DNA from: Candidatus Krumholzibacteriota bacterium
Lineage (GTDB): Bacteria > Krumholzibacteriota > Krumholzibacteriia > JAJRXK01
Length of the DNA stretch: 64,000 nucleotides
Assembly: GCA_963727455.1 (NCBI GenBank)
Contig: CAVSGG010000009.1
Coordinates: forward strand, 384,001 to 448,000
Reading direction: 5' to 3'
Shown: one piece after another, positions 1,404 through 52,635 of the stretch
How the letters are laid out: each line of letters starts with the position of its first letter
Numbering within the stretch: the first letter of the stretch is position 1
The notes under the pieces: generated by a model
Told to the model about the DNA's origin: nothing
What the model saw: only the letters and a program-made list of their open reading frames with translations
Databases searched by the model: none
Made by a program: the position numbers and the translations under genes

Positions 1404-1406
1404 GAA

Positions 1407-3042: not shown

Positions 3043-3996
3043 TCAGCGTAGGCGGTACTCTACACCCGCGAGCGCCTTGAACCCAAGCTCATCTGGCCGG
3101 ACAAAGCGCGTGGCGCAAGCGCCTCCTCCAGGGTGGCATGGGTGAAAGCTGAATCCCTCGTTTTCGGCGCGAAACGGTAGCGCGCGTGCGCTGGCGAAGC
3201 AGGAGTTCCTCCGCCATCTCACCAAGATGAGTTTCAGGGCGAAACCGGGAATCGGCAGGAACGCCGGACGGTGCAATACCCGGCCCAGGGTCCGCGCGAA
3301 ATCTCGCGAACGCATGGGTTCGGGTGCCACCGCGTTGACCGGTCCTGACTCGCACTCGTGCTGAAGATAGTGGACGATGAGCTTCACCAGGTCCGGCAGA
3401 GCGATCCAGCTCCAGTACTGATCGCCGCCGGCGAGCGGGCCCCCGAGTCCAAAGCGAAAAAAAGGCAGCATGCGGGCGAGGGCCCCACCGTCCGGTGACA
3501 GCACCATGCCGATACGAAGATGGAGGGTGGTGATCCGGGCCCGGCGAGCCGCTTCGGCCGCGGCCTCCCAGGCCGCGCAAGTCTCCGCCAGAGAATCCCC
3601 GGCCGGGCGGGTCCGACTCGGCGCAGAGCTCCTCGCCCCGATCCCCGTAATACCCCACGGCCGAAGCGCAGATGAGGATCCTGGGCTTGACGGGAGAGCC
3701 CAGCCAGCCCCTCCGCCAGGAGCTGCGTGCCCTTCACCCTGCTGTCGCGGATGCGCGCCTTCTTGGCAGGGGTCCAGCGATCGGAGGAGATCGGCTCCCC
3801 CGCGAGATGGATGACGGCATCCTGCCCTTCCAGGGCCTCCGCGTCGATTTCCCCCCTCCGGGGATTCCAGTGGGCACGGCCCGGGACTCGTGCCTCTGTT
3901 CCTCTTGAGCGCCAGGATCTCGTGGCCGAGCGCCGTCAGGCGCTCCGTCAGCGCCTGGCCCAAAAGCCCCGAGGATCCGGTGATTGCGATACGCAC
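3043..3996 (-). CDS. TIGR01777/YfcH-family NAD-dependent epimerase (internal frameshifts)
   Basis: [13 protein letters not shown] Rossmann start; [30 protein letters not shown] and [10 protein letters not shown] motifs. Confidence 0.8.
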
Positions 3997-4202
3997 GGTC
4001 GAGTCCTCCCCATTGGAAGTGTGGATCCTCCCCGCGAGGGTAAGAGGGGATCCGGCCGCTGGCCAGTTTGGACATGGCCCGGCGGCCCCCTAGTATTGGG
4101 GGGCAAATTCAACGGATCTGGGAGCGTGAAGCGTTCACGCCGAGGGGAACTCTCAGAGTGTCTTCTCCCGCTCGGCAGAACCCGATTGTGAAAGGTCGGA
4201 CC

Positions 4203-32834: not shown

Positions 32835-35800
32835 TCACTTCACCAGAGTCATCTTGCGGTGCTCGACCAACTCGCCGGCCTTCAGCTGGTACAGATACAC
32901 TCCGCTAGACACTCTCATGCCGTCCTCGCTCCGTCCGTCCCAGACCACGGTCCGCTCTCCCGCCTCCTCCGCACCGTCCACCAGGGTGCGCACGAGTCGA
33001 CCCCTCTGGTCGTAAATCCTCAGACTCACCTTGCCGCTGCGAGGCAAGACGTAGCGGATCGAAGTCGAAGGATTGAAGGGATTGGGATAGTTCTGATCGA
33101 GCACGAAGCGCCGCCCGGGCGCGTCGTTCACTCCGGTGGGGCTCCCCACCTGAATGGATAGGTTGTCAACTGCCCAACCCCATCCGTGAACGCCCGCGTC
33201 GGCAAAGAGTCGGAAGCGCACCAATATGGTGTCGCCCCAGTCGAAGGTGTTCAGAAGATCGAGACTGCGATGGCGGAAGAGCGAGGAGTTGCCGCTCTGG
33301 GACGAATTCCAGGCGTTGAGCCAATCCGGATCGCTGCGGCTGTCGTAGCCATCCACCAGGGGTAGCCAGGTGCTGCCGTCCTTGGAGCCCTCCACGATCA
33401 CGTAATCCCAGAACGCCAGGTCACCGAACACCGTTCCCGGATCGCCCGGCTCCACCAGCACCACTTCATCGAATTCCATGATCGCGTCGGACTGAGCCAC
33501 CCGAATGGGTATGGTGAGAGTGGAAGTCGAGGTGGTGTTGTCCGCGTAGGGGTGGGCCGATTGGATCGCCTCGTCGCTAAACCCGGACGCCAGGCTCACG
33601 TTCAGTCCACTCCCTTCGAAATCAGGATTGCCGCCGTTGAAATCGGTGGCATAACTGAAAACGGGCGGGTTCAACGCATAGACATAGAGCGACTTGACCG
33701 GGGAAGAGTAGCTCGAGGCCCCCAGGTGGGAGACCAGCTGGATGTTGGCCATTTCCGAGTTCATGACGGACAGTTCCACCAGGGGACGGTCCCCCGCCGC
33801 ATTGGCGGGCAGGACGGTGGCCACCGCACCGTTCATCATGACCTCGGTGGAATCGTACGCGGAGCGCAGGGTCGTCTCCACGTCCAACTCTCCGGAGGGA
33901 ATCTGGTAGAGCTTCTCGATGAGGGGGGTGAAGGTTTTCCCCGCCACCATGCTGGGCCGCTTGACCGACCAGATGCCCAGTCCATGGGTGGCCACCACCA
34001 CTTCGTCTTCGACGGCGGTCAATTGCCAGATGCCCACGTTGGGCAGGCCGTTGTCGGCCAGATGCCAGGATGCTCCGTCGTCGGTCGACTCGAAGAGACC
34101 GATCTCGGTCCCCGCCCACAACGTGGTCGGCTGGTCGGGCAGTACGAGAAGGTCGTAGACCGCCACGTCGGGGAAGCCGTTGCTGCTCGGTGCGCCGGAT
34201 GCGAAGCCGGTGATGTCCTGCCAGCTCTGTCCCTGATCCTGGGTGCGGAGAATCTTGGGCCGGCCCGCGAAGGAGAAGAGGACGTAGGCCGTTTGATCGT
34301 CGCTCGGATGCGTGGCCAGGCCGGAAATTTGTCCCATGGTCACGCCAAGGAAGTCCGGAACCGGCGCGAAACTCAGGCCGCCGTTGGTCGAAAGGTAAAT
34401 TGAGCCGCCCACGTCCATGTGCGAGCCTGCCCACACCACGTCCGGATTGGCCTGCGAGACTCTCACGTCCAGGAAACTGGAGAACACCCAATCGGAGGTG
34501 TTCATGCTGGCGAGGCTCCAGTTCGCCGCAAAATCGTCGCTACGCCACACCCCAGATTTCCCCACTGCAAAGAGCAAGTCCGGCGCGTCGTTGGACTTTC
34601 CGAGCTTGGTGATGAAGGGTGCCGAACCACTTCCCGTGTCGCTCAGACCGCTGGTCGCCGCGTTCCAGGTGGTTCCGCCGTCAATCGAGCGCAAAATCCC
34701 GTTGTATTGATATCCTCCCGCCAGTTTGAGCGGATCGACGAAGTTCCACGAGGTCTCGTAGCCGTCGCCACCGATCTGAAACACCCAGGGGGTCAGGGCG
34801 TCGGGATTTTCAGGAGATCGCCAGGTGGAGTTGTCCTGCATGCCGCCAATATAGGCGCTGGCGCCCGGCTTCTTGTCCACTCCGTAGAATTGGGTCGTAT
34901 TCAAACCGAGGATGGGCATGCTCCAACCGGTGTCCATGTCGGAGGAAACGGCGATGCCACCGTCGTTCGCGTCGAGAAGCCGCCACGGGGTATTCAGGTT
35001 TCCAGGCAAGAGCACGAGATTGTGATGATCAACGTGCACTCCCGTCTGGGCGAGAAGCGTACTCTGCCGATGGCTCGCATCGAGCATGGTGATCTTCCAC
35101 AACTGGATCCCCCCCACGTAGACCACGTCGGGGTCGGTGGGATGACACAGTATGGTGTTGTCGTACCAGCCCTGCGCTCCCAGCCAATTCGGCTCGGTCC
35201 CCATCTCCGTAGTCTGAGCCCAGGTGGCTCCCGCGTCCGAGGAGATCCAGAGCTGGCTGGTTCCGGAAGCGCCCTGAGCCGCAGCGAAGATGCGGCTGGT
35301 ATTCACGGGAGAGATGGCCAACTCGAAGCGACCAGCGAAATCCGTAATTCCGCTGTTGGTGTAGGACCAGCTGTCCCCGCTATCGATAGACTTCAGGATT
35401 CCTCCCTGCCGTACTGTCGCGTAGAGCACGGTGAAATCCCCCGGGGTCGCTTTCAGGTCCTGCACGTCGTTCCCCGCGTCGGGTTGCGTGAAAACCGTGG
35501 TCCAGGTGGCGCCGCCATCGGTGGACTTGAAGATGTTCGAACTGATGTTGTAGTCCTGCTTGTAGCGACCGGTCGTGGCCGCGACGATCAGCACATCGGG
35601 GTCATTGGGATCGACCAGGATGCGCGAGATGTTGTTGAACTCGGGATCATCGAGGGTGCTCGCCAGCGGAGCCCAGCTTGCGCCATGGTCCACGGACTTC
35701 AGCATGCCGTTACCGTTCATTGCATCGATGTTGAAGAAGCTCTCCCCCGTCCCTGCATAAATGATGTCGGGCTGACTCTCGCACTGGGCCAGCGTAGAAG

Positions 35801-36335
35801 TGGCGAAGCTCTGCGGATCGGGCGTCACCAGCAGCCAGTTCGCCCCCGCGTCGGAGGTCTTCCACACGCCTCCGCCGACCGATCCCACGAACCAGGTGTT
35901 CCCCGTGGCGTCCGAGGGATCGACCAGCAGACCACGAGCTCGCCCCGCCACATTGCCCGGCCCCCGCTCCACCCAGGATAGAGGCGTGCTCGCGGCCTTG
36001 GCGCTCGACTTGGCCTTCTCGAGCTCGAGGATGCGGTATCCCTTTTGGTACCCGTCCTCGATCCGGTCGGCAGGAACTTTCATGTCGTGGAGAATCTTCA
36101 GGAAGAGGTCGGGGCGGTCGGTTTCCGGTTCCCCGCGCTCCTCGTTCCGGGCGTCCTCGATCTTGGAATCGAGGTGGAAGGCGGTGGGCGAGCCACTCCC
36201 GAAATGCTGCCGCAGATGAATCAAGCGCGCCAATTGCTCACGATAGTGGCTGGAATCCTCCCGGGGAAGGAAGACAAAGAGAAGTCCAGTGGCCGCGAGA
36301 AGGAGAAGCACCTGAAGTCGTCGAGTCGGTCGCAT
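32835..36335 (-). CDS. Secreted BNR/Asp-box (VPS10/GH74-like) beta-propeller protein with C-terminal FlgD-Ig domain
   Basis: N-terminal hydrophobic signal; many SxDxGxTW Asp-boxes; C-terminal LDQNYPNPFNPSTSI...WDGRSEDG...SSGVYLYQL. Confidence 0.82.
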   Translation of the reverse strand: MRPTRRLQVLLLLAATGLLFVFLPREDSSHYREQLARLIHLRQHFGSGSPTAFHLDSKIEDARNEERGEPETDRPDLFLKILHDMKVPADRIEDGYQKGYRILELEKAKSSAKAASTPLSWVERGPGNVAGRARGLLVDPSDATGNTWFVGSVGGGVWKTSDAGANWLLVTPDPQSFATSTLAQCESQPDIIYAGTGESFFNIDAMNGNGMLKSVDHGASWAPLASTLDDPEFNNISRILVDPNDPDVLIVAATTGRYKQDYNISSNIFKSTDGGATWTTVFTQPDAGNDVQDLKATPGDFTVLYATVRQGGILKSIDSGDSWSYTNSGITDFAGRFELAISPVNTSRIFAAAQGASGTSQLWISSDAGATWAQTTEMGTEPNWLGAQGWYDNTILCHPTDPDVVYVGGIQLWKITMLDASHRQSTLLAQTGVHVDHHNLVLLPGNLNTPWRLLDANDGGIAVSSDMDTGWSMPILGLNTTQFYGVDKKPGASAYIGGMQDNSTWRSPENPDALTPWVFQIGGDGYETSWNFVDPLKLAGGYQYNGILRSIDGGTTWNAATSGLSDTGSGSAPFITKLGKSNDAPDLLFAVGKSGVWRSDDFAANWSLASMNTSDWVFSSFLDVRVSQANPDVVWAGSHMDVGGSIYLSTNGGLSFAPVPDFLGVTMGQISGLATHPSDDQTAYVLFSFAGRPKILRTQDQGQSWQDITGFASGAPSSNGFPDVAVYDLLVLPDQPTTLWAGTEIGLFESTDDGASWHLADNGLPNVGIWQLTAVEDEVVVATHGLGIWSVKRPSMVAGKTFTPLIEKLYQIPSGELDVETTLRSAYDSTEVMMNGAVATVLPANAAGDRPLVELSVMNSEMANIQLVSHLGASSYSSPVKSLYVYALNPPVFSYATDFNGGNPDFEGSGLNVSLASGFSDEAIQSAHPYADNTTSTSTLTIPIRVAQSDAIMEFDEVVLVEPGDPGTVFGDLAFWDYVIVEGSKDGSTWLPLVDGYDSRSDPDWLNAWNSSQSGNSSLFRHRSLDLLNTFDWGDTILVRFRLFADAGVHGWGWAVDNLSIQVGSPTGVNDAPGRRFVLDQNYPNPFNPSTSIRYVLPRSGKVSLRIYDQRGRLVRTLVDGAEEAGERTVVWDGRSEDGMRVSSGVYLYQLKAGELVEHRKMTLVK

Positions 36336-38334: not shown

Positions 38335-40982
38335 TTATCGGGCGGCCGACCGGTGCATCAACCGCTCCATCTCCGCGGGGACGTTCATCATCAGGTGAAA
38401 CGCTCTCTGCCCTTGGGTATCTCGATTGTACACGATAGCCAAACGCTCACCGCCGGGGTACACGTCATAGTCCTCGACGTAGCCACCGAGTTCTTCGTGC
38501 GAGAGGATTTTCTCTGGTCGGCCCACTCGAAACCGAGGACTGAGGCTCAGCTCGACCCGATACAAAGCCTCACCTTGAGGCCCTGAATAGAAGAGGGCTT
38601 TCCCGTCACTTGCCCAGCGAGCTCCGATCCCCCCGTCGACAGAGACCTGAGTGCGGCCCCCGCCCTCCATTCGTGAGACATAGACCTCGCTCCGGTTGGA
38701 ACTCACGGCACCATACGCCAACCAACGCCCATCCGGAGAGACCTTGGCCCCCGTCTCGTTGAAGGGGGACTGGACGAGCGGGACTCACCTTCTGATCCTC
38801 CAGAGAGAACTTCATGATGTCCATTCCCGTTCCCTTGTCGAAACTTCCGAACAGGAGAGCCTCCCCATCCGGAGTCCAGTCAAAGGCATTCAGGTCCCTC
38901 GCGCTGGGAAAGAGGAGCCGCGGAGTCGCCCCTCCCTGGGCGGCAATCGAATAGAGCTCGAAGGGGCCTCGTCGCATGCTCGCGAAGGTAATGGTCCGTC
39001 CATCCGGCGAGTAAATCGCGCTCTGGTTGGTGCCATCGACGGTGAGCTGCGTTAGAGATTGGCGTACCGAATCCAGTACCCAAACATCGCTCTTACCCGC
39101 CTCCTCGATACAGAGGACCATGTGCCTTCCGTCTGGCGCAATCGAGACCCGATCATAGTCGCGCTCTTCGGGGACGATCGGCTCGACCTTGCCCTCCAGA
39201 TCCGCCCACACCAGGCGCCCATGCGACGCAAAATCGGGCAGGTAGCAGAGATTGGTGCCCCCTACCGTGACGTTCGAAGAACCATCGGTGATACTCACCC
39301 GCACCGGATCGATCAGTGGAACGGGATCCCCCGTGACTTTGGCCCGATCGGGATCGAAGGGCGCGCACATGAGCGTGGCGCCCTGCACATAGAGGAGATA
39401 GCCGGGCTCCATGTACATGGGAGAAACTCCGTTCTCCACCACAACGTGAGCTTCTTTGCTCTTGCGGCTCACCACCTTGATGCGCGCATCGTCCAAGCGC
39501 GTACTCCAGGCCGTGAACAAGACATGGTCGTCGTCGGGAAGAACCCAAGGTTGCCAATGACCCAGCTCCCCCGCGCTGCTGTCGGGATGTGTGAGCGCAA
39601 CGGGAGAACCACCCACGGCCGGGATGGATACGAGTCCCGAGCTGAGGCTCGTGGGGCAGATGATCTGGCCGTCCTTGGTCCACGCGACTCCCGCAGGACC
39701 TCCCACGTCTTTCGAGATGAGCAAGGGCGTGCCACCCTCGACGGAAACGCGCATCAGACGACCATTTTCGCCTTGGCTTCGGAAAGCGACCCAACGGCCA
39801 TCTGGGGAGAAGCAGGGGCTGGTTGCGCCCATTTCGGTGAGTTTGCGCGAGTCCCAAGAATCAAGATTGCGCAGGAAGAGACGCGGTCCCTCCGGAGTTC
39901 TTGCGCTAAAGGCCAGCATCCGCCCATCGCGCGATAGGGCCGGGGCAAGCGAGAGGGGAACGGTATCCACGTTGGGTTTGAGGGCGACCCTCGTCTGCCG
40001 CAAAGACTCCGGTTCTTGATGACCGCTGACCCGGAGCACTGCAAAGCTCAGCAGGGCCCCCACGACGAGACCCAGGCCCAGCCACAGGAGCCGGGACTGA
40101 CGACGGGGACTGGCGATCTGGGGGGCTACCATCATTCTCGAATCGGCAATCACGTCCTCGAGCTCGATGCGCGCATCGCCGATATCGCGCAGACGCCGCT
40201 TCAGGTCCTTTTCCAGACACCGTTCGAGCAGCCGCTTTACGCTCGGTGGTGACATTGGCGGGCAGAAGCTCCCAGGCAGGTGCACGCTCGAGGATCTTCG
40301 CGATGGTGTCCGATACCGTCTCGGCCTGAAACAGTTGGTGCGCCGTCAACATCTCGAAGAGCACGCAACCGAAGGCCCAGATGTCGGCCCGCTTGTCCAC
40401 CATCTTGCCCCTGGCCTGCTCGGGGCTCATGTAGGCCGCGGTGCCCAGGATCACTCCGGCGGTGCTCACGTCGACGATGGTGGGCGAGTGGTCGATGTCG
40501 CTGTCAGTGCTTTCGATCGCCTTGGCCAGACCGAAGTCCAGCACCTTGACCTTGCCGTCGGCCGCGAAGCGGATGTTGGCGGGCTTGAGGTCACGGTGCA
40601 CTACGCCATTCTCGTGCGCTACTTCGAGCGCCTCGGCCACCTGGGCGGCCACGCGCGCTGCCTCGTCGACCGGCATGGGTCCGCGCGCGAGCCGGGTGGA
40701 GAGGTCCTCTCCCTCGACCAATTCCATGGCCAAAAAGTACACGCCTTCGTGCTGGGAAAAATCGTAGAGCGTGGCGATGTGGGGATGATTGAGCGAGGCA
40801 AGGAGGCGCGCCTCTCGTTCGAAACGTGCCACGCGCTCCCGGTCGGCAGCGAACTGCTCGGGGAGGATTTTGACGGCGACAGTGCGTCCCAGGCGTATGT
40901 CGCGCGCGCGATACACCTCGCCCATGCCGCCGACGCCGACCCGCGCTTCGATTTCGTAGTGGCCGAGAGTCTTCCCGATCAT
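38335..40982 (-). CDS. Ser/Thr protein kinase with TM helix and TolB/PD40 beta-propeller (frameshifted)
   Basis: [29 protein letters not shown]; TM LLWLGLGLVVGALL; repeated SPDGR motifs across ORFs 39906-40982, 38606-40285 and 38335-38721. Confidence 0.85.
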
Positions 40983-41100: not shown

Positions 41101-42112
41101 TCAGCTCTTGACCGCGATGGTCACCGCTCCCTCCTTCGGGGCTTCGCTGCGTGCCTGCGTCATGATCTTGAGCCTGATGGGCGAGCCGGCCAAATGCCGC
41201 GCCAGCTGCTCCTGGACCACAGCACCCATGGCCTCGGCAATCTCGTGGCTGCGCGCGAAGACATGGATCTCGATCGGCTCCTTCGCGTTCGCGTACTGGT
41301 TCAACCAGGAGGCGGCCTCCACCAGCCAGGGATCGTCCACCCCCGCCGGCCGCTGCGCCACCTCGGGCCCCATGAGCGACTTCCCCGAGAAGACCAGGCG
41401 GAATGCGTGGTCGGTCGCGAGACGATAGGGAGACACCTGAAATCCCTCACCCACGAAATTGCGCCGATTTCCCGCCTTGTCCTTGGCCGTAAGCACGTAC
41501 GAGTAGACGAGTCCGGGCAGAGCCAGCTCTCCCGAATCGTAGACTCCATTCCAGACGATCTCCTTGGGGAGCGATCCCTTTCCATTGAAGACACGCACCG
41601 TGTCGCCTTTGGAGTCGGCGATGATGAGCTGCCAGCTGGCCACGTCATCGAGCTCGGGGTGAAAGCGTGCCACCGAACCCTCGCGGAATTGCCGCAACCA
41701 GGGATGGCCCAGCGATTGGGCTCGATCCGCAGTGGAGGTGTTCACCAGGGGCGAGAGTAGGTCCACCTCCCGTCGCTGTACGACGTCCAGCGCGCTGCCC
41801 CAGCTCAGACCCTCGATGGCGTAACCGTCGATCTTCAGGTCGAGCTTGCGGACGATCGAATTCGATCTGGATCTTGTCCTCGCCTTCCACGGTGAGGGAA
41901 CGCAAGACCGTGGTCTTCTCGTCTCCCTTCAAAGTCATCGAGTCCGGCGCGGCATTGATCGCGTTCTGCTTCGCGGGATCCGAAGAGGGATCGGAAGTGG
42001 AATTCGCCGCGCTGCGTGCCGTCGCGGAGAGGGGCAAAAGCACGAGCGCCAGGATTCCGCTGGCAGCGGCGATCGCGATTCTTCGCGTCTTGCGGAAGCT
42101 TCGGGGTTTCAT
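41101..42112 (-). CDS. Exported hypothetical protein with FlgD-like domain (frameshift near 41845)
   Basis: Signal peptide MKPRSFRK...LLPLSATA; WQLIIADSKGDTVRVFNGKGSLPKEIVWNG...YSYVLTAKDKAGN. Confidence 0.65.
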
Positions 42113-42129
42113 GATCGGCGACCCTTTCA

Positions 42130-43077
42130 CTAGCTGGTCAATCTGAAGTGGATGGTGATGCTGCCCCATTGCTCCTGGTTCGAGCCGGCGGGGAGCGCCT
42201 CGAAACGCCACAGCCGTAGGGCCTGCTGCGCTCTGAGATCGAAGTCTTGATAACCTGAAGTGCGGTGCACCATGACGTTCTTCTTCACGCTGCCGTCGGG
42301 CAACACCACGAAACTCAGCATCACGGTGCCCTCCACGCCCTCCTTCTTCGCCCACTCGGGATAGGCCGGCATGATGTACTTACGGATCGGCCGGTCCGCC
42401 GCCGGTCCGGCCAGGGACGCACCCGAGAGAGTGCGCCGCACCGTGAGGTCGGCGTTTTTGGGGATGATGGCGCTGGGCGCGGTGGCGACCTCGGTCGGCT
42501 TCACGTTTGCGAGCGACGGGGTGCGACTCAAAGTTCGTTCCCTTCGCAACTCGGAAGGAGCCGCGGTCGGCACGCCAGATTCGCGAATGAGTTTCTTCTC
42601 GTCCACGGCGCCCGTCTTGGCAAGCTCGGTTGCGGGGGCCTTGAGCAGCGCGGAACTGTGGGGTGTCTCCACCGCCAGCGTGGGTTTGCTGTCGCGGAGC
42701 GCGGCCAACCGTTCGCTGAGCCGATCGTCGCGCGCGGTGAGGCTCTGCGGCTTCGGTTCGACCTCGGCCTTTTCGTTCTCCACCCGCTCGAAACGAGCCT
42801 GGGTGGTCGGCTGCGGTGAGGGTTTCTCCTTCAGCTTCGGCTTTTCGGTCGCCGCCTGCACCGGCGGCGCCGCCACCTCGACGGGATTCTTGGTTGTTCC
42901 CGAATCTTCCAGCCAGGTGAACTCCGTCAGCGCGGCCGGTGGTGGCGCGATCTTCGGTGCCATGAGCAGAAGCATGATGAGCAGCGCGTGGACGATCAGA
43001 CTGCTGATCCATCCTTTCTGCTTCAGCTCGTGCTCTTCACGAAGCTCCAGAGTTTGCGCGTAGGCGATGGCATTCAT
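42130..43077 (-). CDS. tonB: Energy transducer TonB
   Basis: TM with SxxxH (SLIVH), Pro/Lys/Glu-rich linker and TonB_C YPEWAKKEGVEGTVMLSFVVLPDGSV. Confidence 0.85.
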   Translation of the reverse strand: MNAIAYAQTLELREEHELKQKGWISSLIVHALLIMLLLMAPKIAPPPAALTEFTWLEDSGTTKNPVEVAAPPVQAATEKPKLKEKPSPQPTTQARFERVENEKAEVEPKPQSLTARDDRLSERLAALRDSKPTLAVETPHSSALLKAPATELAKTGAVDEKKLIRESGVPTAAPSELRRERTLSRTPSLANVKPTEVATAPSAIIPKNADLTVRRTLSGASLAGPAADRPIRKYIMPAYPEWAKKEGVEGTVMLSFVVLPDGSVKKNVMVHRTSGYQDFDLRAQQALRLWRFEALPAGSNQEQWGSITIHFRLTS

Positions 43078-43501
43078 GGCTTCTCGCTCCCGCTTTGATT
43101 GGTGGCCACCGCGACGCGACGCGCGCCGGACTTCTTCGACAGCCTTCCATGATGGCCCGAACCTCTCCGTGGGTGGCCCTGGCATCCGCGCGCACGACCA
43201 CGAGCGTCTTGTCCCCATTCGCCGTCATCAGTCGCCTTTGGATGGCTTGCGCGAGTGAGGGGAGGGTCACCATCTGCTCATCGACCGCGAGCTGCCCCTC
43301 GGAGCTGTAGCTCACGCTGATCCGATGTTCGTCCTCGGCTCCGCGCGTGTGGGCCGTGGGCAGTTTGATGTCCAGATCGGCCACCGTGATCATCGGAGCG
43401 GTGACCAAAAGGATGATCACCAACACCAGCGCCACGTCGATGATCGGCGTCACGTTGATCTTGACGAAGCAAGGAAGCTCCTCGAACAGCGGCTTCTTCA
43501 T
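43074..43501 (-). CDS. exbD: ExbD/TolR family protein (3' frameshift)
   Basis: INVTPIIDVALVLVIILL and VVRADARATHG. The corrected frame ends at the ATGA overlap with tonB. Confidence 0.85.
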
Positions 43502-43504
43502 GAT

Positions 43505-43912
43505 CTACTCCTTCACCGCGATCTTCCGAGCTCCACACAACTTCGCCCGGTCCAGAACGTTGACGAAACGACCGTGGCTGACGGCGTCAGCGCACTCCAC
43601 GACCACTTCGCTCTCTCCGGCGTTCGCCAGGAGCGGGGTCAAGATCTCCTCCAGCTGCTGCTGGTCGATGCGCTCGCGATTCACCGTGAGTGCCTCGTCG
43701 CTGAGAATCTTGATCTCCACCCTCTCCTGCTTGGTCTTCTCGGTGGCTTTCCTGCCGCTGGCGGCGGCCTGTCTGAGCGCGATGCTCGACTCGAAGGCCA
43801 GTGGGGTCGCCAGCAGCAGGATCACCACCAGAACCAAGGAGACGTCGATGAGCGGGGTCACGTTGATTTCGTGACTTCCGCCGCCGCCAGGTGAGTATTC
43901 TGACTTGCGCAT
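43505..43912 (-). CDS. exbD: ExbD/TolR family protein
   Basis: EINVTPLIDVSLVLVVILL and VSHGRFVNVLDRAKLCGARKI. Confidence 0.88.
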   Translation of the reverse strand: MRKSEYSPGGGGSHEINVTPLIDVSLVLVVILLLATPLAFESSIALRQAAASGRKATEKTKQERVEIKILSDEALTVNRERIDQQQLEEILTPLLANAGESEVVVECADAVSHGRFVNVLDRAKLCGARKIAVKE

Positions 43913-43924
43913 GGATATCCTCGC

Positions 43925-44639
43925 TTAGGGATGCGTGCTCGCGACCGGTTCTCCGCTAGGCTCGCCGATCACCGAACGAATGCGATCCACCGTCGGATTC
44001 AGGTCCTCAGCCGGCGCTTGATCCTCTGCACCGAGGGAGGCTCTGAGCGAGCGCGTGTGATTCTCCGCGATCGTCAGCATCACCGACATCCGCCGCGAGA
44101 AGTGGTTGTAGAGCAAGACCGCGGGCACCGCGATGATCAGACCGGCAGCGGTCGTCAGCAGTGCCTCGGCCACTCCCGCCGCCACCACCGACGGCGCGGC
44201 CGATCCCACCTGCGCCATGTCGTGGAAGGCCCGCATGATGCCCCAGACCGTTCCGAAGAGACCGATCAGAGGCGCCACCGCGGCCATGCTGCCCAGGACG
44301 GAGAGGTTCTTCTCCAGAGAGGAGCTTCTGGCGGCTCAGAGCGACTTGCAGCCGCTCTTCGAACTCGGCCGGAAGTTCCCTGGACCTCGACAGAACCTGG
44401 GCGGCCACTCTGCCCATGGGGTGATTGCAGTGCTCACACTGCAAGAGAGCTTCCGAGGTCTTCCCCCGACGCAAGCACTCGAGGGCCTTGTGCAGTGTCT
44501 GCTCGGGATCTCCGGAGCGTCGCCGGTAGTAGAGAAACCGTTCTATGGTCACGGCCAGGGTGACGATGCTCAAGACGAGCAGGAGGAGCATGATTGGGCT
44601 TGAGCGTGTGGCTCCCACCCAGTCGAATTCGGCAAACAT
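43925..44639 (-). CDS. exbB: ExbB/TolQ/MotA proton channel (frameshift near 44320)
   Basis: APLIGLFGTVWGIM and GVAEALLTTAAGL; the N-terminal TM is in another frame. Confidence 0.88.
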
Positions 44640-44676
44640 CGAGCGTTCTCCTTTGCTTTCGGGAAATCCCCGTGAA

Positions 44677-47600
44677 CTAGTGAATGACGGACTTGAGCTC
44701 TTCGACGCGGTTCTGCGCCACCGCGACCAGCTCCGGGTCATCAGCGTTCTGAATCAGGTCTCGATAGGCGGCCACGGCGTTGGTGTAATCCTCGCGGTCC
44801 TCGTAGATGGCGGCACAGCGCGCGATCGCCGACAGACGATAGGAATCCTTGGCATCGCCGGATTTCATCGAGCGCCTGTAAGCGGCGAGAGCCTTGTCCG
44901 TTTCCGTCAGCTTCTCGCGGCATTGCCCGAGTCGGTACAACACCTCGCAAATCGCGTCCTTGCTCACTCCCGCATTCAGCGCGCTCTCGTACTCGCCGGC
45001 CGCCGCGTCCCACTCACCCTGGGACTCGTCGATCTTTCCCAGCTGCAGGGAGACTTCGACGCTGCGCTCGTCCTGCGGGTACAGGCTGCGATAGCGCTGA
45101 AGGCTGGTCTTCGCGTCCGCCAGCTGACCCAGGAGCTGTTGGGCCATGGCCAGATTGAACAACCCGGCTCTCTGCAGTTCCTTGTCGTCGCTCTGATCCA
45201 CCACCGCGGTGAATTTCACGGCGGCTTCCATGTAGTCTTTCTTTTGGAAGAGCTGGAGCCCGAGACGGAACTGGACGGTCGGTCTGAGCTCGCTCTCGGG
45301 GAAGAAGAGCAAGAACTGCTGGTAGGCCTGAATCGAGCGCTCGGTCTCGTTTGCCTTCGCCCAGGCCTCCCCACTCAGGAACTGAGCGCGGTCGACCTCG
45401 TCGTAGCTGGGGAAGCGGCTGACCACTCTGCGGAAGGCCTCGGCTGCTTCTGCGTACTGCTCCTTCTTGTAGAGTCCGCTGGCAATCTGGAATTGCGCAT
45501 CGGCGGCAAAGCTGCTCTCGGGGTACTTCTCGATCAGCTCGGACAAGACCTCGCTGCCCGAATCCTCTTGGCCCAGGCGGTAGAGCGCCAGCTCCATGCC
45601 CCTCTTGGCCTCCTTGGCGCTCATCGTGTGCGGATACTGCGCGATGACGGTGGAATAGCCCTGTAGAGCATCCGCGTCGCGCCCGCGTTGAAGTCGCACT
45701 GGGCCATGCGCAGGAGCCCGGTAGCCCCCGCGCTACTGCTCTCGAAGTTCTCCAGGAGACCCTGGTAACAGCGCTTGGCATCCTCGTAGTGGCCGCTCTG
45801 GAAGTACAGATCGCCCGCGCGGGCCCAGGCCTTCTCCGCGATGGGAGCGCTGGGCTCGCGAGCCACCAGCTCCTCCCATCGATCCACGGCGTCTCCGCTG
45901 CGCCCCAAGCGCTGGTAACAGACACCAGCCTGATAGGTCGCCAGGGCGAACTGCGGAGAATCACCAAAGCGGTGCCGGTAATCCTCGTAGATTTCGGCTG
46001 CTTTCTCGTAGTGCTTCTGGTTGAAGTGTACGTGCGCCATGCGCAGGTAGGCCGAGCGGACCGAGTCGCTGGACTCATCGGGCGAGAAGCGTTGCAGCAT
46101 CTTCTTCTCGGTGGCGATGGCCAGATCGTCCATGCCCTGCTGCGCGAAGGTCCAGGCCAAAAGCTGCGTGGCGGGCAGCGCGATGTCGTGCTCCTTGAAG
46201 ACACCCAGGAGCTTCTGCAGCGAAGCTTGCGCATCCTGGTAGCGGCCCTGTGAAGCCAGAGCATCCGCATCGATGAGAAGTGCATAGCCGCGCCAGCTCG
46301 TTTGGCTTGGAGGCATGGCTTGCAACATCAAATGCGGCGCGCCACTGAGCTGACCCAGATCGCCGGCCTGATGATAGGAGAGCAACAGCAGACACAGCGC
46401 AGCCTCGACCACTTCTTTCTGCTTATCGTCCTTGAAGATGAGGAAACCACCACTCCCTTTTTGTCCCGCATAGCGGTCCAGCACCAATTGGAAGTAGGGC
46501 GCGGCCGCGAGCGGACGATCCATCTCTAAGAGCCCGACACCGGCCAGGTACGCCGCCGGCGGAGCCTCGGCCTCCAGCGGATAACCGCGCACCACGGTTT
46601 CGTAGGCCCCCACCGCTTCGGCCCGGCGCCCCAGAGTCTCGTAGCATCGGCCAATGCGGTACTGCGCGCTGGCCGCCACTTGATGTTCGAAATAATTGCG
46701 CAGGACCAGGTTGTACTGGACGATCGCGCCCTGGGGATCGTCTTGCGCGACACTGATCTCACCCAGGAGGAACTGACCGCGCGCGGCGGCGTCCGCTTTG
46801 GGGAAACGACTGACGAGACCTTTGAGGACCGGAGTCGCCTCCTCGAGACTACCTTCCGCGAATAGCGCGGCCCCCTGCCTCAGGAGCGCTTCCGCCTGCA
46901 ACTCGGGATTCTTGCTCTCCTTGGCGACCGTGGCGAAACCCTCGGCCGCACTGCGATACGCCTTGCCGTTCAGGAAAGAGTTCGCCTTGGCGTACAGACC
47001 CAGGTAACGCAGCGGAGAATCCGGATAGCGCTCATAGACTTCCTGATAGGCTGCCGCGGCGTGCAGCACTTCAGCTTGCTCATCGTAGCAGAGAGCATTC
47101 AAGTAACTCACCGCGGCCGAGTGGGCGGGGGCATTTGCCAGCTCGCTCAGGCATGCCGCGGGATCACCCTGCGCATATTCAATCGTTGCGTGAGCCACGA
47201 CCACCCTCTGCATCCCGCTGGTCCAGGGCGCGATCGACTTCAGCTGGTTCAGCGTCTTCTCCGCCTTGTCCCACTTGGACTGCCTCAACTCGTTCCACGC
47301 TCGAGCGATCCAGGCTTGCGCCAGGAGCGGACTGTGGGGATGCTCCTCTTCCCACTTCTTCCACTGCTTCAAGGCCTCTTCGTTCTGGCCCTCGGCTTCG
47401 AGCGCACGGATGGCGGCGAACTCTGCGTCGTCCACGAAGGGGCCCTTCTTGTCCTCTTTCGCGGCCTTCTCAAAAAGCTCGCGCGCTTTGGCGGGCCGAT
47501 TCAACTCGCCTTCCATTTCCGCAAAGAGGAAAGTGGCAGCCGCCTTTTCAGCGTCATCCAGATCGGATTGGAGAACGCTCTGCAGCGGCTGCTCCAGCGA

Positions 47601-47816
47601 GTTGATCGCTCCTTTGCGGGCGACGCCGGTCAAGGCGCTCGCAAACTCGAACTGAATCCCGAGTCCGGTGAGCGTCTTCGGAGTTTGCGCACTCGCATCC
47701 TTGCTTTGGCTGGAATCGCTGGGATCGTCCTCCGCTCTCGATGTTCCCGGAAGGAGAAACACCAGAAGGACGGCTACGAGCAACTCCGATATGCGCCTTC
47801 GCGCTCTGATCTTCAT
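44677..47816 (-). CDS. Large exported TPR protein (~1045 aa, YbgF/BamD-like repeats; frameshift near 45690)
   Basis: Signal peptide; many repeats of the type Y..V..RYP.S....A.Y..G. Confidence 0.8.
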
Positions 47817-47839
47817 GCGAACTCTGCTCCTGATTCGCG

Positions 47840-49096
47840 TCAATTGACTTCCACCGGAATTTTGCCCGAAGGACCGGATGTGGAGATCTCCACTGTTTGC
47901 TCCTTGGCGGAGATTTCTACGCCCTCGTCGTCGGTGACCGAGAAGCGATAGCGGTAGCTGCCGTCGGGCAGCGGCATACCGGATTCGTCGGTTCCATCCC
48001 ACAGCACCAGAGCCGGAGGATTACCCTTGCCGCCGAAACGGCGAACCAGTTGATCATCCTTGTCGATGATGTCGAGCGACCACTCGACGGCCTCGCCGCG
48101 GGTGCGGGTCTTAAGGTGGAAGGTAGTGACCGAGTTCTCACCACTGGGCGAGAAGATCTCGGGTCTGGCTTGCGAGGTGGCGTGGAATCCGCCGAAGTCG
48201 TAGACGATACCCACGCGATGCAGGACGTCCAATTCGTTGTCCTGCGCACTGTAATCCAGGCGCATGTTGTGGGACACGCGCACGCTGAGCCCGCCTGCAA
48301 CGCGTTGATCGCGGTACCCGGCTCTCAACGCGAGCACGCGGTGCACCCAGAATTCGGCGCCCGTGGAAACAATCGCCCCCGGTCCCTTTTGCGCTTCAAC
48401 TTGTGCGGTGACTAACGCGCGGCCCTTCATTCCGTTCCACGCCAGACCACCCCGAAAATTCACGGGATAGCTTTCATCGGCTTCCCGGTAGGTTACATTC
48501 GGTCCACCGATGTTGAGAACGCTGGCACCGGCCTTCCACTCTCGGGTGATATCGGCAATGAGTCCCAAGTCCAACCCCACGCCACCACCGTTGAAATCTT
48601 CCAGCGACTCGCGGACCATCTTGAAGTTCGCACCCATGGAGACCTTCTCCGAGACTCTCTTGGCGGCAGTCAGATAGACTCCGAGATTTCCCGCACTGAA
48701 GGTCCCGAGGTGGTCGTTCAGTTCGTTGGTGCGTTCGAAGTCGCCCGAATTGAGGGTCACGAAGCTGATGCCGACGCTCGGGAAGGTTTGACCCGGTAGG
48801 GCGAAACTGAACGCGTTCATGCGCGACTCGCCGAAGAGGGAAACGGTTTCGAATTGCGTCTGGTTTTGCAGCAAGTGACTCAGTCCCGCAGGATTCCACA
48901 AGCTGCCAAGGGCGCCGTCTGCGTTAGCCACGAAGGACCCGCCCATGCCGGCAGTTCGCGCGGTCTGATAGCTGGTGAGCCAGTCCCCGGGTTGCCCGTA
49001 GACCGGATCCTGTGCCCGGACGGCGGAAGTTCCACCCAGAGCGATGAACAGGACACTGATACAGAAAATAGCGGTCGTTGATTTCATGAATTTCAT
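47840..49096 (-). CDS. PorV/PorQ (UPF0164, FadL-like) family outer-membrane barrel fused to a C-terminal FlgD-like domain
   Basis: ARTAGMGGSFVANADGALGSLWNPAGL, GVGLDLG, NIGG and LALRAGY, then PEIFSPSGE...WSLDI...LWDGTDESGMPLPDGSYRY. Confidence 0.75.
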   Translation of the reverse strand: MKFMKSTTAIFCISVLFIALGGTSAVRAQDPVYGQPGDWLTSYQTARTAGMGGSFVANADGALGSLWNPAGLSHLLQNQTQFETVSLFGESRMNAFSFALPGQTFPSVGISFVTLNSGDFERTNELNDHLGTFSAGNLGVYLTAAKRVSEKVSMGANFKMVRESLEDFNGGGVGLDLGLIADITREWKAGASVLNIGGPNVTYREADESYPVNFRGGLAWNGMKGRALVTAQVEAQKGPGAIVSTGAEFWVHRVLALRAGYRDQRVAGGLSVRVSHNMRLDYSAQDNELDVLHRVGIVYDFGGFHATSQARPEIFSPSGENSVTTFHLKTRTRGEAVEWSLDIIDKDDQLVRRFGGKGNPPALVLWDGTDESGMPLPDGSYRYRFSVTDDEGVEISAKEQTVEISTSGPSGKIPVEVN

Positions 49097-49109
49097 CCTG
49101 CTTCCTCCC

Positions 49110-52100
49110 CTATCGGACCACGCCGACTTTGCGGCGCATCACGTGGAGAGTCTGACCGTTGCCTTCCGCCCGTACTTCGACGATGTATCCACCGCTGGCC
49201 ACGATCTCGCCGTCCCCATTGCGGCCGTCCCACACGACCTCGTTCAGACCGACCGTCCCCCCTTCCCCAGCGGGAAGGAAGTTTTTCTCGAGCACGAGGT
49301 TTCCGCTCAGGGTGTAGATCCGCATGCGCACCGAGGCGTTGTCGGCCAGCTTGTAGGCGATCGTGGTCGGACTCTCGTTGGGGTGGAAGGGATTGGGATA
49401 GTTGGCGATGGTCCCACCAGGCGCGTCGGGATCGACGAGCGCCGTCTCGACCTGCAGATCCTGGCTCAAAGAACCGGAGCTGGCTTGGATGGTGTCCATC
49501 TCGGGTTCACGCGGACTCAGGAAGTCGGCCCTCGCGATGCCAGCGTCATCGGTTTCTGCGTCCAGGGGTGTGAGCGTTCCCATCCCTTGCGTGAGGGTGA
49601 AGACCACTCCTTGCATGGGAACGCCGTTCTCGTATTGGTCGAGGACCCGGGCATATACGGTTGAGTGTTTGTTCCCCTTCAACCATGTGGGATCCGAAAC
49701 CAAGTCGATGTGATCGGGGGTGCCCGGCACCACGCTGATCACATCGGTCGTTGCGGGTTCGTGGCCCAGGTCGTCGGTAGCGGTGATCTGAATGTCCTCC
49801 GCGTAGGTGTAATACATGTCCACCGTTGTCGAACCCTGGAGGATCTGGAACTGCGTGGTACGAAGCTCACCCGCTCCGGGGTCGCCGGAAGAGGCATTTC
49901 GTACGCTGAGGTTCACGCCGGTATTGATCTCCTGAATGACGCTTCCCGCGTCGTTGGTGACCTTGACCGTCAGATGGAAGTTCCCGCCTGCCATCACGTG
50001 CGTGCTGTCGACCTCCGCCTCGAGATGGAAACCGCTCGAGATCGCGCGCACTTGGGTGGTGCTCGTGGGCATGCTGGGTTGCGTCACGTTTGCGACGGTG
50101 ATCTGCTGATAACCGCCCGTGGAAAGACGCATGGAGAGTTCCGCGACGCCATCCTGCATTGCGGTGTCGCCAGGAAGCTCAGCCATGGCGTCCGAAGAAC
50201 TCAGACGAACCACATCGTTCACGCCTTGAACCGGATTCCACCATTGGTCCGTCGCATACACGGTGACGGTGAAGGCGTAGTTGATGGATTGATCAGTCGC
50301 CAAGCCGGTGCGGCCATTCTCGGTTCCCGGTGCCGGAAATTCGCCAGGCGCTAGAATGAGTACTCGAGAGTAGGTTCCCGGCAGCACAAGAACCTGGCTG
50401 GAGGTGTGGGAGGCGATCTGAGAAGAATCGGCGTCACTCGCGCTCACCGTTTGATAGCCCGCCTTGAAGAGAGTCGCGGGCACGGTGGCCTCTCCATTGA
50501 GCAGCGCGACGTTTGCCGGGAAGCTGGCGAAGGGGTCGCTCGAACTCAGAGTCACCGTATCGCTGATCCCCGGAACCCGGTTCCAGTAGGCGTCGACGGC
50601 GCGCACTGTAAGATTGAAGCTGCTCCCCGCGTTTTGATCCTGCGGTGCGCCACTCACCCCGGTTTCGGTTCCGCCCTGTGCAATTTCGCCGGGCAGCCGG
50701 ACCTGGAGTTTCTCGAAGGGACCCGGAAGCACCACGAAGTTCGCGCTCGTTCCCGTGTGGGGCGGCGCAGCATAGTCGGAGCAGGTGAAAGAGACCGCGC
50801 CACCGGCTCCACGGAAGACCATCTTGCCGTTCCACACACCGGCGGTGAAGGTGATGCGATCCGGCGAGATGCTTCCCGGTCCGGTATTCGCGGCCAGATT
50901 GGCTTCACCGAAATAGCCAGGCACCGTGTTGCCAGAACCATCTACCGCGCGGATGTTCACGGTGACCGAGTCCCCTGCCTGCACCGGAGTGGGAAAGGAG
51001 TCCACTGCAAAGCCGGCAATCGCGTTGGGAATCACCGGAATCCCCACCGTGGTCATCCCCGCGATACTGCCGTTGGTCTGGTCCGAAACGCTGAGATTCT
51101 GCGAACCGACCGTTCCCAAAGAGAGAGTGAACTGACGGAAGCCATTGCTCAACGCGCCGCTCACTGGCGTGCTCGCCAGTGGGTCGTTGGAGATAATTCG
51201 TACGGTGTCCCCGCTGGGCAGGGGATTCCAGTAGTCGTCCGTGGCATAGACCTCGACGGTGAAGTCCTGCCCTGCGCCCTGGGTCGCGGCCTCTCCACTG
51301 AGCCCGCTCACGCTTCCCGGCTCCGCGGACTGGCCGGGAACTACGATTTGAACACGCGAGAAATTTCCGGGGTGGACCGAGAACGGATCGCTCGTGCCAT
51401 TGCGGGACGGATCACTGTCCAGAAGAGCGTAGATGTTCACGTTTCCGCGGTTGATGGCCGTCTCATCCGCGCGATACATCGTCACCTGACCCGACCACTG
51501 GCCGTTCACCAGGTCGACCGTGGCCGGCTCGATGCGGCCCTCTCCGTAGCTCGTCAATTCGCGCAAGCGCACCGGGCCGTCGTAGTTGTTCAGTTGCTGA
51601 CCGTTGGTATCCACAGCCCACAACGAGATCGACATCGCTTGTCCGGCGTACTGGTTCTTCTGGTTGATCCGCGCGAACTCGAATCCCTGCAGCAGGACCG
51701 AGCCCACCTGGCTCGAGCTGGCATCGGGAATCGTGGTGTCGGTCAAATCGCTCGCCTGGAAGTCGAATTGTCCGTCGGCGTTGAGCGTGACGGTGAATTG
51801 CAGTTCTCCGTCACTCATCACGGCGCTCGGAGGCAGCGTAGCTGTCTCGTCGCTGCTGGTGATCTGAATCTGACTCGTGATGGAAGTTTGCGTATTCCAC
51901 GAGGAATCGCAGGCCCTGACCAGGATGTTGAAAGGAACACCCACCGTCTGCGTATCGGGCTGACCGGATTTACCATTCACCGTTCCCGGTGCGGGCGTCT
52001 CCCCGGGAAGAAGAACCTGGAGCTGCGTGTAGCTCTGCGCCAAAGCAGAAGAAGTGCTCCACGGTCCGAGGGAAAGTCCTGCCACGATCGACAAGATCGC

Positions 52101-52133
52101 CAGGAGGAACCGTCTTTTGGGAAACTTCGACAC
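49110..52133 (-). CDS. Large secreted Ig-like repeat protein with C-terminal FlgD-Ig domain
   Basis: GTG start with RBS and signal peptide; internal repeats; C-terminal IANYPNPFHP...WDGRNGDGEIVASGGY. Confidence 0.8.
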   Translation of the reverse strand: MSKFPKRRFLLAILSIVAGLSLGPWSTSSALAQSYTQLQVLLPGETPAPGTVNGKSGQPDTQTVGVPFNILVRACDSSWNTQTSITSQIQITSSDETATLPPSAVMSDGELQFTVTLNADGQFDFQASDLTDTTIPDASSSQVGSVLLQGFEFARINQKNQYAGQAMSISLWAVDTNGQQLNNYDGPVRLRELTSYGEGRIEPATVDLVNGQWSGQVTMYRADETAINRGNVNIYALLDSDPSRNGTSDPFSVHPGNFSRVQIVVPGQSAEPGSVSGLSGEAATQGAGQDFTVEVYATDDYWNPLPSGDTVRIISNDPLASTPVSGALSNGFRQFTLSLGTVGSQNLSVSDQTNGSIAGMTTVGIPVIPNAIAGFAVDSFPTPVQAGDSVTVNIRAVDGSGNTVPGYFGEANLAANTGPGSISPDRITFTAGVWNGKMVFRGAGGAVSFTCSDYAAPPHTGTSANFVVLPGPFEKLQVRLPGEIAQGGTETGVSGAPQDQNAGSSFNLTVRAVDAYWNRVPGISDTVTLSSSDPFASFPANVALLNGEATVPATLFKAGYQTVSASDADSSQIASHTSSQVLVLPGTYSRVLILAPGEFPAPGTENGRTGLATDQSINYAFTVTVYATDQWWNPVQGVNDVVRLSSSDAMAELPGDTAMQDGVAELSMRLSTGGYQQITVANVTQPSMPTSTTQVRAISSGFHLEAEVDSTHVMAGGNFHLTVKVTNDAGSVIQEINTGVNLSVRNASSGDPGAGELRTTQFQILQGSTTVDMYYTYAEDIQITATDDLGHEPATTDVISVVPGTPDHIDLVSDPTWLKGNKHSTVYARVLDQYENGVPMQGVVFTLTQGMGTLTPLDAETDDAGIARADFLSPREPEMDTIQASSGSLSQDLQVETALVDPDAPGGTIANYPNPFHPNESPTTIAYKLADNASVRMRIYTLSGNLVLEKNFLPAGEGGTVGLNEVVWDGRNGDGEIVASGGYIVEVRAEGNGQTLHVMRRKVGVVR
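50040..52035 (-). repeat. Protein-level repeats (~100 aa): four 'LQVxxPGE..PG' units alternating with '(A)G...AVD..G...Y.G' units
   Basis: YTQLQVLLPGETPAPGT, FSRVQIVVPGQSAEPGS, FEKLQVRLPGEIAQGGT and YSRVLILAPGEFPAPGT, each followed by (V)RAxD/YATD..WN. Confidence 0.75.
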
Positions 52134-52635
52134 GTCAATCGCCTCTGCTCTGCGCTCTGGACAATCATCCGGAGCTGGGAACGGCCAGGCAGCAAAAGCT
52201 ACTGCAAGCTGGCCGGAGGGATTCTGGATCGCTCGGTGACTAGAAGGTTGCGTGCCATTCCCCAGAGCGTGAAGAAAGGCGGACTCCCGAAGGTGAGTTA
52301 GTGCTGATGAGGGTCGATGGCAGTGCGACTTTCCGGATGACAGTTCATCTTGATTCGTTTCGTACGAGGAGAACGTACTCGATCCCGGATGTGAATGACC
52401 GTTACTCATCGAGGCGGATACCGCGCACGATACATGCAAGCGAGTTGCAAAACGTGCCTTGATTTGCCCGATCTGAAGAACACTGCGGACATGAGGAAAC
52501 GAGGGGAGCCGAGGAATTGCGGGTGACCTGACTCTCTCGGCGTGGCAGACTTCCTACTCTCATCTAGCTTGGGCTTGTCGACGAGCTTCAGAGCTCACTG
52601 GATTTTTCGAGAAACCACGAAGGAGAGAACGGAGC

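Follow-up and report, generated by a model that had tools for sequence, protein, structure and literature searches.

The window analysed here, by which we mean the whole 64,000-nucleotide stretch of contig CAVSGG010000009.1 from position 384,001 to 448,000, comes from a metagenome-assembled genome of the Krumholzibacteriota and carries eight co-oriented genes on the minus strand of its positions 41101–52133. We call these genes A through H, and refer to them together as the operon. They encode, in order, an exported Ig-repeat surface protein with a type IX-style C-terminal sorting domain (CTD), an outer-membrane barrel of the PorV/PorQ family, a very large tetratricopeptide repeat (TPR) protein, an ExbB/TolQ-type proton channel, two ExbD/TolR paralogues, a TonB-family transducer, and a smaller exported protein. 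We propose tentatively, and at somewhat short of an even chance, that the operon specifies a dedicated envelope machine of the Ton/Tol type, driven by protons and centred on a type IX-style surface protein together with that protein's own barrel. The parts are familiar and it is their combination that appears to be undescribed: a 5:2 proton motor, a TonB-type transducer, a putative TPR scaffold, a PorV-like presumed carrier barrel and a CTD-tagged surface protein.

Organization of the operon

The genes were defined from the open reading frame (ORF) listing, a three-frame reading of the region, and scans with the Pfam and NCBIfam models; all lie on the minus strand. Gene A (49110–52133) is an intact ORF for an exported Ig-repeat surface protein of about 1007 amino acids (AAs), which matches Big_1 (45.3 bits) and, over its C-terminal stretch (49113–49412), the FlgD_ig model (36.8 bits, cut-off 27), a CTD of the T9SS (type IX secretion) type. 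Gene B (47840–49096) encodes the 418-AA barrel of the PorV/PorQ family (NF033709, 114 bits, cut-off 90), whose residues ~310–418 (47843–48169) make up an Ig-like tail that matches FlgD_ig at 27.1 bits. The exported protein of gene C (44677–47816), about 1046 AAs long, matches TPR families only. Genes D (43925–44639; MotA_ExbB, 90.5 bits on its C-terminal piece), E (43505–43912) and F (43074–43501) encode the ExbB/TolQ-type proton channel and ExbD/TolR paralogues 1 and 2, both of which match ExbD and have a transmembrane (TM) Asp. Gene G (42130–43077) encodes the 315-AA TonB-family transducer (TonB_C, 65.4 bits), and gene H (41101–42112) an exported protein of about 336 AAs with a signal peptide and an FlgD_ig-like stretch that scores 19 bits, below the cut-off. 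The spacing between neighbouring genes ranges from a 4-base overlap (an ATGA at the F/G junction) up to 37 bases, and the overlap of the F stop with the tonB (G) start is found in relatives as well.

The original prediction, made from the letters of the window and no database searches, had described eight tightly packed co-oriented genes in this order and had stated that there is no TonB-dependent receptor (TBDR), tolB or pal among them. The first statement is borne out by the ORF reading and the Pfam and NCBIfam matches, and the second agrees with a Pfam scan, in which no Plug, TolB or Pal domain was matched within the operon.

Conservation and distribution

Full-length B is encoded by 22 of the 40 relatives that we examined, and the loci of 20 relatives were taken for comparison. 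All 19 of these Krumholzibacteriota loci with enough flanking sequence keep the order A-B-C-D-E-F-G-H, with identities between 22% and 93%; the remaining locus, on a contig of 7.4 kb, breaks off after B. The flanking genes are common only to one genome of the same genus as the window (G001), and the unit therefore consists of these eight genes. The operon comes in two forms. In type 1, the form in the window, protein A has about 1000–1150 AAs, and in type 2 it has about 2240–2460 AAs and the TonB is longer. G001 carries, besides its type 1 locus, a second operon copy of type 2, with its C-D-E-F-G set at C4:54384–57746 and B in two pieces upstream (C4:51445–52337); no type 2 copy is present among the five motors of the window's source genome.

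Across the phylum, about 134 of the 208 species genomes have a full-length B, 72 are without it and two are borderline (counted by hand from a profile search, with an E-value of 1e-100 or better taken as a full-length match). Carriers occur in all nine families; of the four other genomes in the genus of the window, three have no B. Outside the phylum, a library-wide profile search found full-length B-like proteins in clusters labelled Elusimicrobia, WOR-3 and Stahlbacteria. Eight of nine WOR-3-labelled loci keep the eight-gene order and the ninth ends after A-B-C, while one Elusimicrobia-labelled locus is permuted (C-D-E-F-G-H-A-B). The proposal in the original prediction that synteny in relatives be used as a check thus gave a conserved gene order in the 19 Krumholzibacteriota and eight WOR-3 loci and a rearranged one in Elusimicrobia. 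Depositors labelled the 67 full-length B matches as, for example, Eisenbacteria, Latescibacteria or Zixibacteria, and we did not count these labels as further phyla; two of the records, CP070763.1 and OY970173.1, are genomes placed in the window's own class. Another listing of homologues of the B profile held close relatives only.

The motor

The residues expected of a working Ton-type motor are present, as the original prediction had noted for the ExbD Asp residues, the ExbB Thr residues and the SxxxH and YP motifs of TonB. The transducer G has an N-terminal TM helix with SxxxH, a Pro/Lys/Glu-rich linker and a C-terminal TonB_C domain with YP, and its residues S26, H30 and Y239 are invariant in 20 of 20 aligned TonBs. 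The GT and TT motifs of ExbB (D), with their conserved TM Thr, occur both in the window and in all 19 relatives compared, and the TM Asp is found in both ExbDs (E and F) of the window and of all 12 type 1 relatives. The type 2 operons have Asn in place of the protonatable TM Asp of the second ExbD (PIINV, in 4/4 seen: L025, L027, L029 and L031) and keep the Asp of the first (PLADV).

We placed the motor in an ExbB-family tree of 55 proteins, made up of 27 operon-linked ones (19 from Krumholzibacteriota, seven from WOR-3 and one from Elusimicrobia), 26 further matches from seven Krumholzibacteriota genomes, and E. coli TolQ and ExbB. The broken ExbB of the window (see below) was left out, and the G001 copy stands for it. 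The G001 protein from C4, at first labelled "other", was relabelled operon-linked after the tree had been made, given its type 2 C-D-E-F-G neighbours, which brings the operon-linked rows to 28. These 28 form one clade (ultrafast bootstrap 91, SH-aLRT 91), and outside it lie a Tol clade, a TBDR-linked clade and two other paralogue clades from the same genomes. By this tree the operon motor is a separate evolutionary line. The original prediction had named a grouping with ordinary uptake systems as a result that would tell against it; the operon clade stands apart from both the Tol and the TBDR-linked motors of the same genomes.

The surface protein and its barrel

The C-terminal residues of A have their best local matches in the CTDs of the PorZ and PorU models; on TIGR04183, the model for the type A CTD, A scores 20.3 (cut-off 23), and on FlgD_ig, as given above, it is over the cut-off. 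Protein B scores below the cut-offs of all the relevant equivalog models (PorQ, 91 bits against 220; PorV, 35 against 250; PorV2, 51 against 325), and by profile it is nearer to PorQ than to PorV. An AlphaFold model of B, built from an alignment of 19 orthologues, has a mean pLDDT (predicted local distance difference test) of 84.6 and consists of a beta-barrel followed by a beta-sandwich. Its best matches in the PDB are the PorV chains 8gl6_F and 6h3i_F, both from SprA translocon complexes, and the next are FadL and TodX; as modelled, B is a barrel of the PorV/FadL type. With NF033709 matched above its cut-off and the PorV-like fold of the model, the assignment of B in the original prediction to the PorV/PorQ family, with an added FlgD-like domain, has held up. 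None of the three outcomes that the prediction had listed as refuting it, on gene order, on the fold of B and on the grouping of the motor, was obtained.

The Ig-like tail of B is predicted to be periplasmic because it is located after the last barrel strand. When a profile of this tail was run over all six-frame ORFs of the genome, the best non-self match was protein H (45.4 bits), every CTD scored 34.6 bits or less, and A's own CTD was outside the 40 best. The B tail and the Ig domain of H are each other's nearest paralogues in the genome, and as the nearest relative of the tail is thus H and none of the CTDs, these two domains are a matched pair that is distinct from the sorting tags. The B-tail Ig domain also occurs, in a public protein library, in 7 to 34 tandem copies within giant proteins of 800–4000 AAs.

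Proteins H and C

Protein H consists of a signal peptide, a TonB-box-like strand, an Ig-like domain and an alpha/beta C-terminal domain of about 100 AAs. All 19 aligned orthologues conserve the strand, which lies at the N-terminus of the mature protein (type 1, LTVEGEDRVRIEFERP; type 2, EMVVEAQNQVRQ); it is recognisable in the WOR-3 (IGEEVIKGEVEFKIQDRKI) and Elusimicrobia (PVLIEGVSRIQMKGDKP) copies, and in the window reads LTVEGEDKIQIEFDRP (41849–41896). In TonB-dependent transporters the TonB box sits just before the Plug domain, and the H strand resembles the stretches that precede Plug in this genome's own TBDRs (DEFVVEGQAVMVEV, DEVVVRAERP and YEVLAQRK); it may therefore be regarded as a candidate TonB box.

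The strongest repeats of C are TPR_6 repeats of the YbgF/CpoB type (TIGR02795, 141 bits), and other TPR models match as well. CpoB is about a quarter as long as this protein, whose ORF in relatives, as called, encodes 992–1162 AAs (one over-long call of 1435 AAs was left out).

A possible mechanism

Taken together, the eight proteins suggest a force path that would lead from the motor through TonB and an adaptor, H, to the barrel B and the surface protein A. In this mechanism A would cross the outer membrane by the general SprA/PorU/PorV pathway by means of its C-terminal tag, and would then stay on the surface with the tag held in B, much as PorQ holds PorZ and as SprF is proposed to hold SprB. 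ExbB and a heterodimer of the two ExbDs would convert proton flow to force on TonB (G), the C-terminal domain of which would grip the TonB-box-like strand at the mature N-terminus of periplasmic H. The Ig domain of H would pair in the periplasm with the homologous Ig tail of B, and given such a pairing a pull on H would act on B from below; A could in this way be moved, tensioned, exposed or let go. The ~1046-AA TPR protein C would serve as the scaffold of the assembly. The outcome would be an adhesin under motor control, not a transporter.

Several points weigh against this. The contacts of G with H, of H with B, of B with A, and of C with the others are all ones that we infer. The tag of A is generic, and only adjacency links the sequence of A to B. 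The candidate TonB box of H has a short-strand likeness as its sole basis. The C-terminal domain of H has no significant sequence relative in the PDB (the best E-value of the H search, 0.011, was to a designed protein), and an hhalign comparison of that domain with the genome's Pal gave a probability of 1.65%. The 91/91 support for the operon ExbB clade is good rather than decisive, with the E. coli and Elusimicrobia rows on long branches. Finally, four of the genes are out of frame in this assembly, so that the machine may no longer work in this one strain.

A bolder form of the proposal is that the operon represents a further class of proton-driven trans-envelope machine, alongside Ton, Tol-Pal, Agl-Glt and the type IX/gliding apparatus driven by GldLM. 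In it TonB would pull on a soluble adaptor, H, instead of a transporter plug, and the adaptor would, by way of the matched Ig domains, draw along a PorQ-like barrel to which a giant adhesin is held, giving Krumholzibacteriota, WOR-3 and Elusimicrobia an adhesin under motor control. We regard this as possible but doubtful.

Type IX export in the source genome

The source genome has type IX parts of its own. SprA_N is matched on a 2222-AA ORF, PorU (449 bits, cut-off 420) is followed directly by a PorV-family gene, and there are 14 PorV-family matches. FlgD_ig has 69 matches, and the 38 CTD-class ones listed are all at the C-terminal ends of their ORFs, so this domain is a general sorting tag of the organism. 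Including PorU-PorV, the genome has four pairs in which the gene for a CTD protein precedes that for a PorV-family barrel. Since SprA, PorU and PorV are all present, the operon is probably not a general secretion motor. Elsewhere in the window (32835–36335, minus strand) a 1166-AA Sortilin/BNR-repeat protein carries a C-terminal FlgD_ig tag and is another likely type IX cargo.

The original prediction had proposed a search for sprA and for porK, porL, porM and porN (with gldL and gldM). SprA was found, with PorU and PorV, while the GldL, GldM and GldN models have no match in the source genome (88.85% complete), in G001 (GldL and GldN only) or in two single-contig genomes (G023 and G031), although each matches a Bacteroidetes control genome; GldK was not searched for. 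With SprA and PorU present and GldL, GldM and GldN not found, type IX export in these bacteria must draw its energy from another source, and the operon motor might provide it for one cargo, by energising A's own export or its assembly into B and thus standing in for GldLM/PorLM. GldLM is required for secretion in Bacteroidota, according to the accessible text of a review (PMC10202324). We nevertheless think this explanation unlikely. SprA is present in 41 of 41 sampled genomes (37 by Pfam and four with the SprA of the window genome as query), and these include genomes that do not have the operon, which is missing from about one-third of the phylum and from three genomes of the window's own genus; about 60 other CTD proteins of the source genome have no such motor adjacent. 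Export in general thus does not need the operon motor. In addition, divergent GldLM-like proteins could have escaped the models. The original prediction had suggested that the machine exports, displays or moves its cargo. Display or movement fits better with these findings, and export is weakened by the genome's own SprA, PorU and PorV, by the genome-wide tag, and by the universal SprA (41/41) as against an operon found in about two-thirds of the phylum.

Other motors in the genome and other possible roles

There are five MotA/ExbB-family genes in the source genome. A canonical TolQ-TolR-TolB-Pal-YbgF cluster is on contig C5. A mixed cluster at C15:54700–74600 encodes, in order, a TBDR-like protein (1116 AAs), a protein of 927 AAs that weakly matches a CTD, a barrel of the PorV family, a GWxTD protein, ExbB, ExbD, TonB, a TolC-like protein and a second GWxTD protein. 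Two further motor clusters contain TPR genes, and six Plug-domain matches lie outside the operon, one of them beside another motor. The Tol-Pal and receptor-linked Ton functions are therefore covered elsewhere in this genome.

The mixed cluster, in which a TBDR, a CTD protein, a PorV-like barrel and an ExbB-ExbD-TonB set stand side by side, gives some substance to the idea that the operon is itself a system for TonB-dependent uptake, with B as a FadL-like channel, H as a plug in trans that is pulled by TonB, and A as the substrate-capture protein. FadL and TodX are the next-best fold matches of B after PorV, the strand of H is like those of transporter plugs, and the motor parts are ordinary Ton parts. 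On the other hand, the operon contains no substrate-processing enzymes, binding proteins or inner-membrane permeases and its flanks vary; the profile of B is PorQ/PorV-like, not FadL-like; and neither the giant TPR protein nor the doubled Ig module has a counterpart in uptake systems. We consider uptake quite unlikely as the function of the operon.

In the Tol-Pal system the soluble periplasmic protein TolB is pulled by TolA at its N-terminal strand. This pulling logic is a precedent for a third possibility, in which the motor would use a TolB- or Pal-like H and a CpoB-like TPR protein to fasten the outer membrane to the wall, or for local remodelling of that membrane. The repeats of C do score best on the YbgF/CpoB model, as given above, and OmpA is matched in the C-terminal domain of two of five H orthologues. 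These OmpA matches (Pfam) are weak and sub-threshold, and the G001 copy that stands for the window H is not one of the two; because of this and of the hhalign result above, we do not call H OmpA-like. A tether of this kind is improbable in our view, since a complete Tol-Pal cluster is already present in the genome, the operon has neither a beta-propeller nor a clear peptidoglycan-binding domain, and a tether does not account for the conserved association with A and B.

That the operon is a chance neighbourhood, in which an ordinary Ton motor that serves TBDRs (the six Plug matches do need one) happens to lie beside unrelated type IX genes, is close to refuted, since the order is kept over three labelled phyla at 22–30% identity while the flanks change, neighbouring genes overlap or are closely spaced, the motor makes up a clade by itself, and another ExbB-ExbD-TonB set is found beside a TBDR.

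Frameshifts in the assembly

In the window, a frameshift divides each of genes C, D, F and H over two frames, a point that the original prediction did not mention. Relative to the same-genus genome G001, which is 76–83% identical to the window in DNA sequence, C has one base missing at about 45681, D has one extra base at about 44318, F has a net two extra bases at about 43141–43147 (with the frame lost near 43134–43147), and H has one extra base at about 41849; A, B and E align to G001 gap-free, and the frame of G is kept. The same four genes are single ORFs in all 19 of the relatives' loci that hold them. We also compared contigs from four public metagenome runs (X1–X4) that are 95–100% like the window, and every run contig that crosses a break has a compensating indel there: at the H break in X1, X2 and X4, at the D break in X1 and X4, at the C break in X1, X3 and X4, and at the F break in X1 (two 1-base omissions). 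The next gene downstream of the operon, which encodes a Ser/Thr kinase fused to a PD40 beta-propeller (38606–40982, minus strand), is likewise split by a frameshift in the window and whole in G001. Because the relatives and the run contigs are in frame at the same sites, and because the kinase-PD40 gene is split too, the four frameshifts are probably consensus errors of the assembly; real decay in this one strain is the alternative, and assembly error is the likeliest explanation.

Other observations in this genome are of the same sort. One base at window position 44667, between the C stop and the D start, is left out by the X1 and X2 contigs and is likely a further, intergenic assembly indel. 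The SprA gene of the window genome appears to lose its frame near its end, and a Plug match at window positions 8537–8806 (C9:392537–392806, minus strand) lies in an open frame of 276 AAs that is probably part of a TBDR cut by another frame break. The kinase-PD40 gene adjoins the operon only within the genus.

Upstream region

Upstream of A in the window there is a TGGCAC element (52243–52257, minus strand) that is conserved with G001; it is a possible -24 box and has no canonical -12 GC. A sigma-54 promoter in the window was considered and rejected, as the consensus search gave 64 matches where 58.9 were expected and the conserved TGGCAC is without the -12 GC; no canonical sigma-54 box was found upstream of A in the window or in G001. 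Among the 20 relatives' loci, sigma-54 -24/-12 boxes (TGGCAT-N5-TTGC and close variants) do occur upstream of A in ten (L014, L018, L020–L022, L027 and L029–L032), which is about seven times background. A box was defined here by a match at 9 or more of the 11 consensus positions, for which 0.072 per 700 bases is the background rate; at that rate roughly 1.4 of the loci would be expected to have one.

Comparison with known systems

We found no published description of the operon in the searchable literature (subscription journals and supplementary files were outside the search), which agrees with the statement in the original prediction that this hybrid architecture was not recognised as a characterised system. 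Five kinds of known system resemble parts of it.

The first is the set of type IX pairs of Bacteroidota (PorZ-PorQ, PorU-PorV and SprB-SprF/PorP), in which, as with A and B, the gene for a CTD-tagged protein stands beside one for a PorV-like barrel. In the accessible text of the review cited above (PMC10202324), PorQ retains the CTD of PorZ, PorP/SprF barrels have their genes next to those of their cognate cargo, for which they are the proposed anchors, and GldLM is needed for the movement of SprB. The operon differs from these pairs in the extra C-terminal Ig domain of B, in the joining of A and B to ExbB-ExbD-ExbD-TonB, a giant TPR protein and H, in the GldL, GldM and GldN that the model searches above did not find, and in a host outside the Bacteroidota.

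The second is the Agl-Glt machinery. In the accessible part of its description, the core complex is specified by aglR, aglQ and aglS with gltD, gltE, gltC (TPR) and gltG (TonB-like), the core is kept as one cluster, and its function outside gliders is given as unknown (Luciano et al. 2011, PMC3169522). Compared by arrangement alone, and within that same part of the source, the two systems share one TolQ-like and two TolR-like proteins, a TonB_C transducer and an exported TPR protein of about 1000 AAs (GltD has 1191). In Myxococcus the Agl-Glt machine works with outer-membrane barrels and a surface adhesin. Unlike its counterpart GltG, G has no FHA domain, and it scores higher on generic TonB_C (58.9 bits) than on NF033768, the AgmX/PglI tail model (24.1 bits, cut-off 40); there are three TPR genes in Agl-Glt and one here, and the operon barrel is PorV-like.

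The Ton system is the third and Tol-Pal the fourth. The hallmark residues of ExbB, ExbD and TonB are all present in the operon, as is a TonB-box-like strand that would be the handle, but there is no Plug or 22-strand barrel, the presumed handle is on the soluble periplasmic protein H, and the ExbB clade is separate from the TBDR-linked one. Like Tol-Pal, the operon combines a motor with a transducer, has as their partner a soluble periplasmic protein with a (here putative) handle at its N-terminus, and includes a TPR protein, the repeats of which score on the CpoB model and on other TPR models; it differs in having no TolB propeller and no Pal.

The fifth consists of the TPR-tolQ-tolR-tolR-vWA "force transducer" clusters of the PVC group, which have been cited as a sign of undiscovered machines with 5:2 motors (Mol Biol Evol 2025, PMC12204202, accessible part). 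As that text gives them, they too have, in the same order, one gene for a TPR protein, one TolQ-like gene and two dissimilar TolR-like genes followed by a transducer; their transducer ends in vWA, whereas that of the operon ends in TonB_C, and the word PorV does not occur in that paper.

Implications

The operon is ancient enough to be common to three candidate phyla, and its motor is a separate lineage. Were the force path proposed here to hold, the partners of TonB-type transducers would not be limited to transporters, and the operon would join Agl-Glt as the second case in which a Tol/Ton-like motor acts on a surface adhesin. It would also bear on how type IX-style export or display works where SprA and PorU are present and GldL, GldM and GldN are not found. 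Should the operon prove to represent a further class of trans-envelope machine, it would show type IX-style display wired to a Ton-type motor, an arrangement that in these bacteria may serve surface movement or force-regulated attachment.

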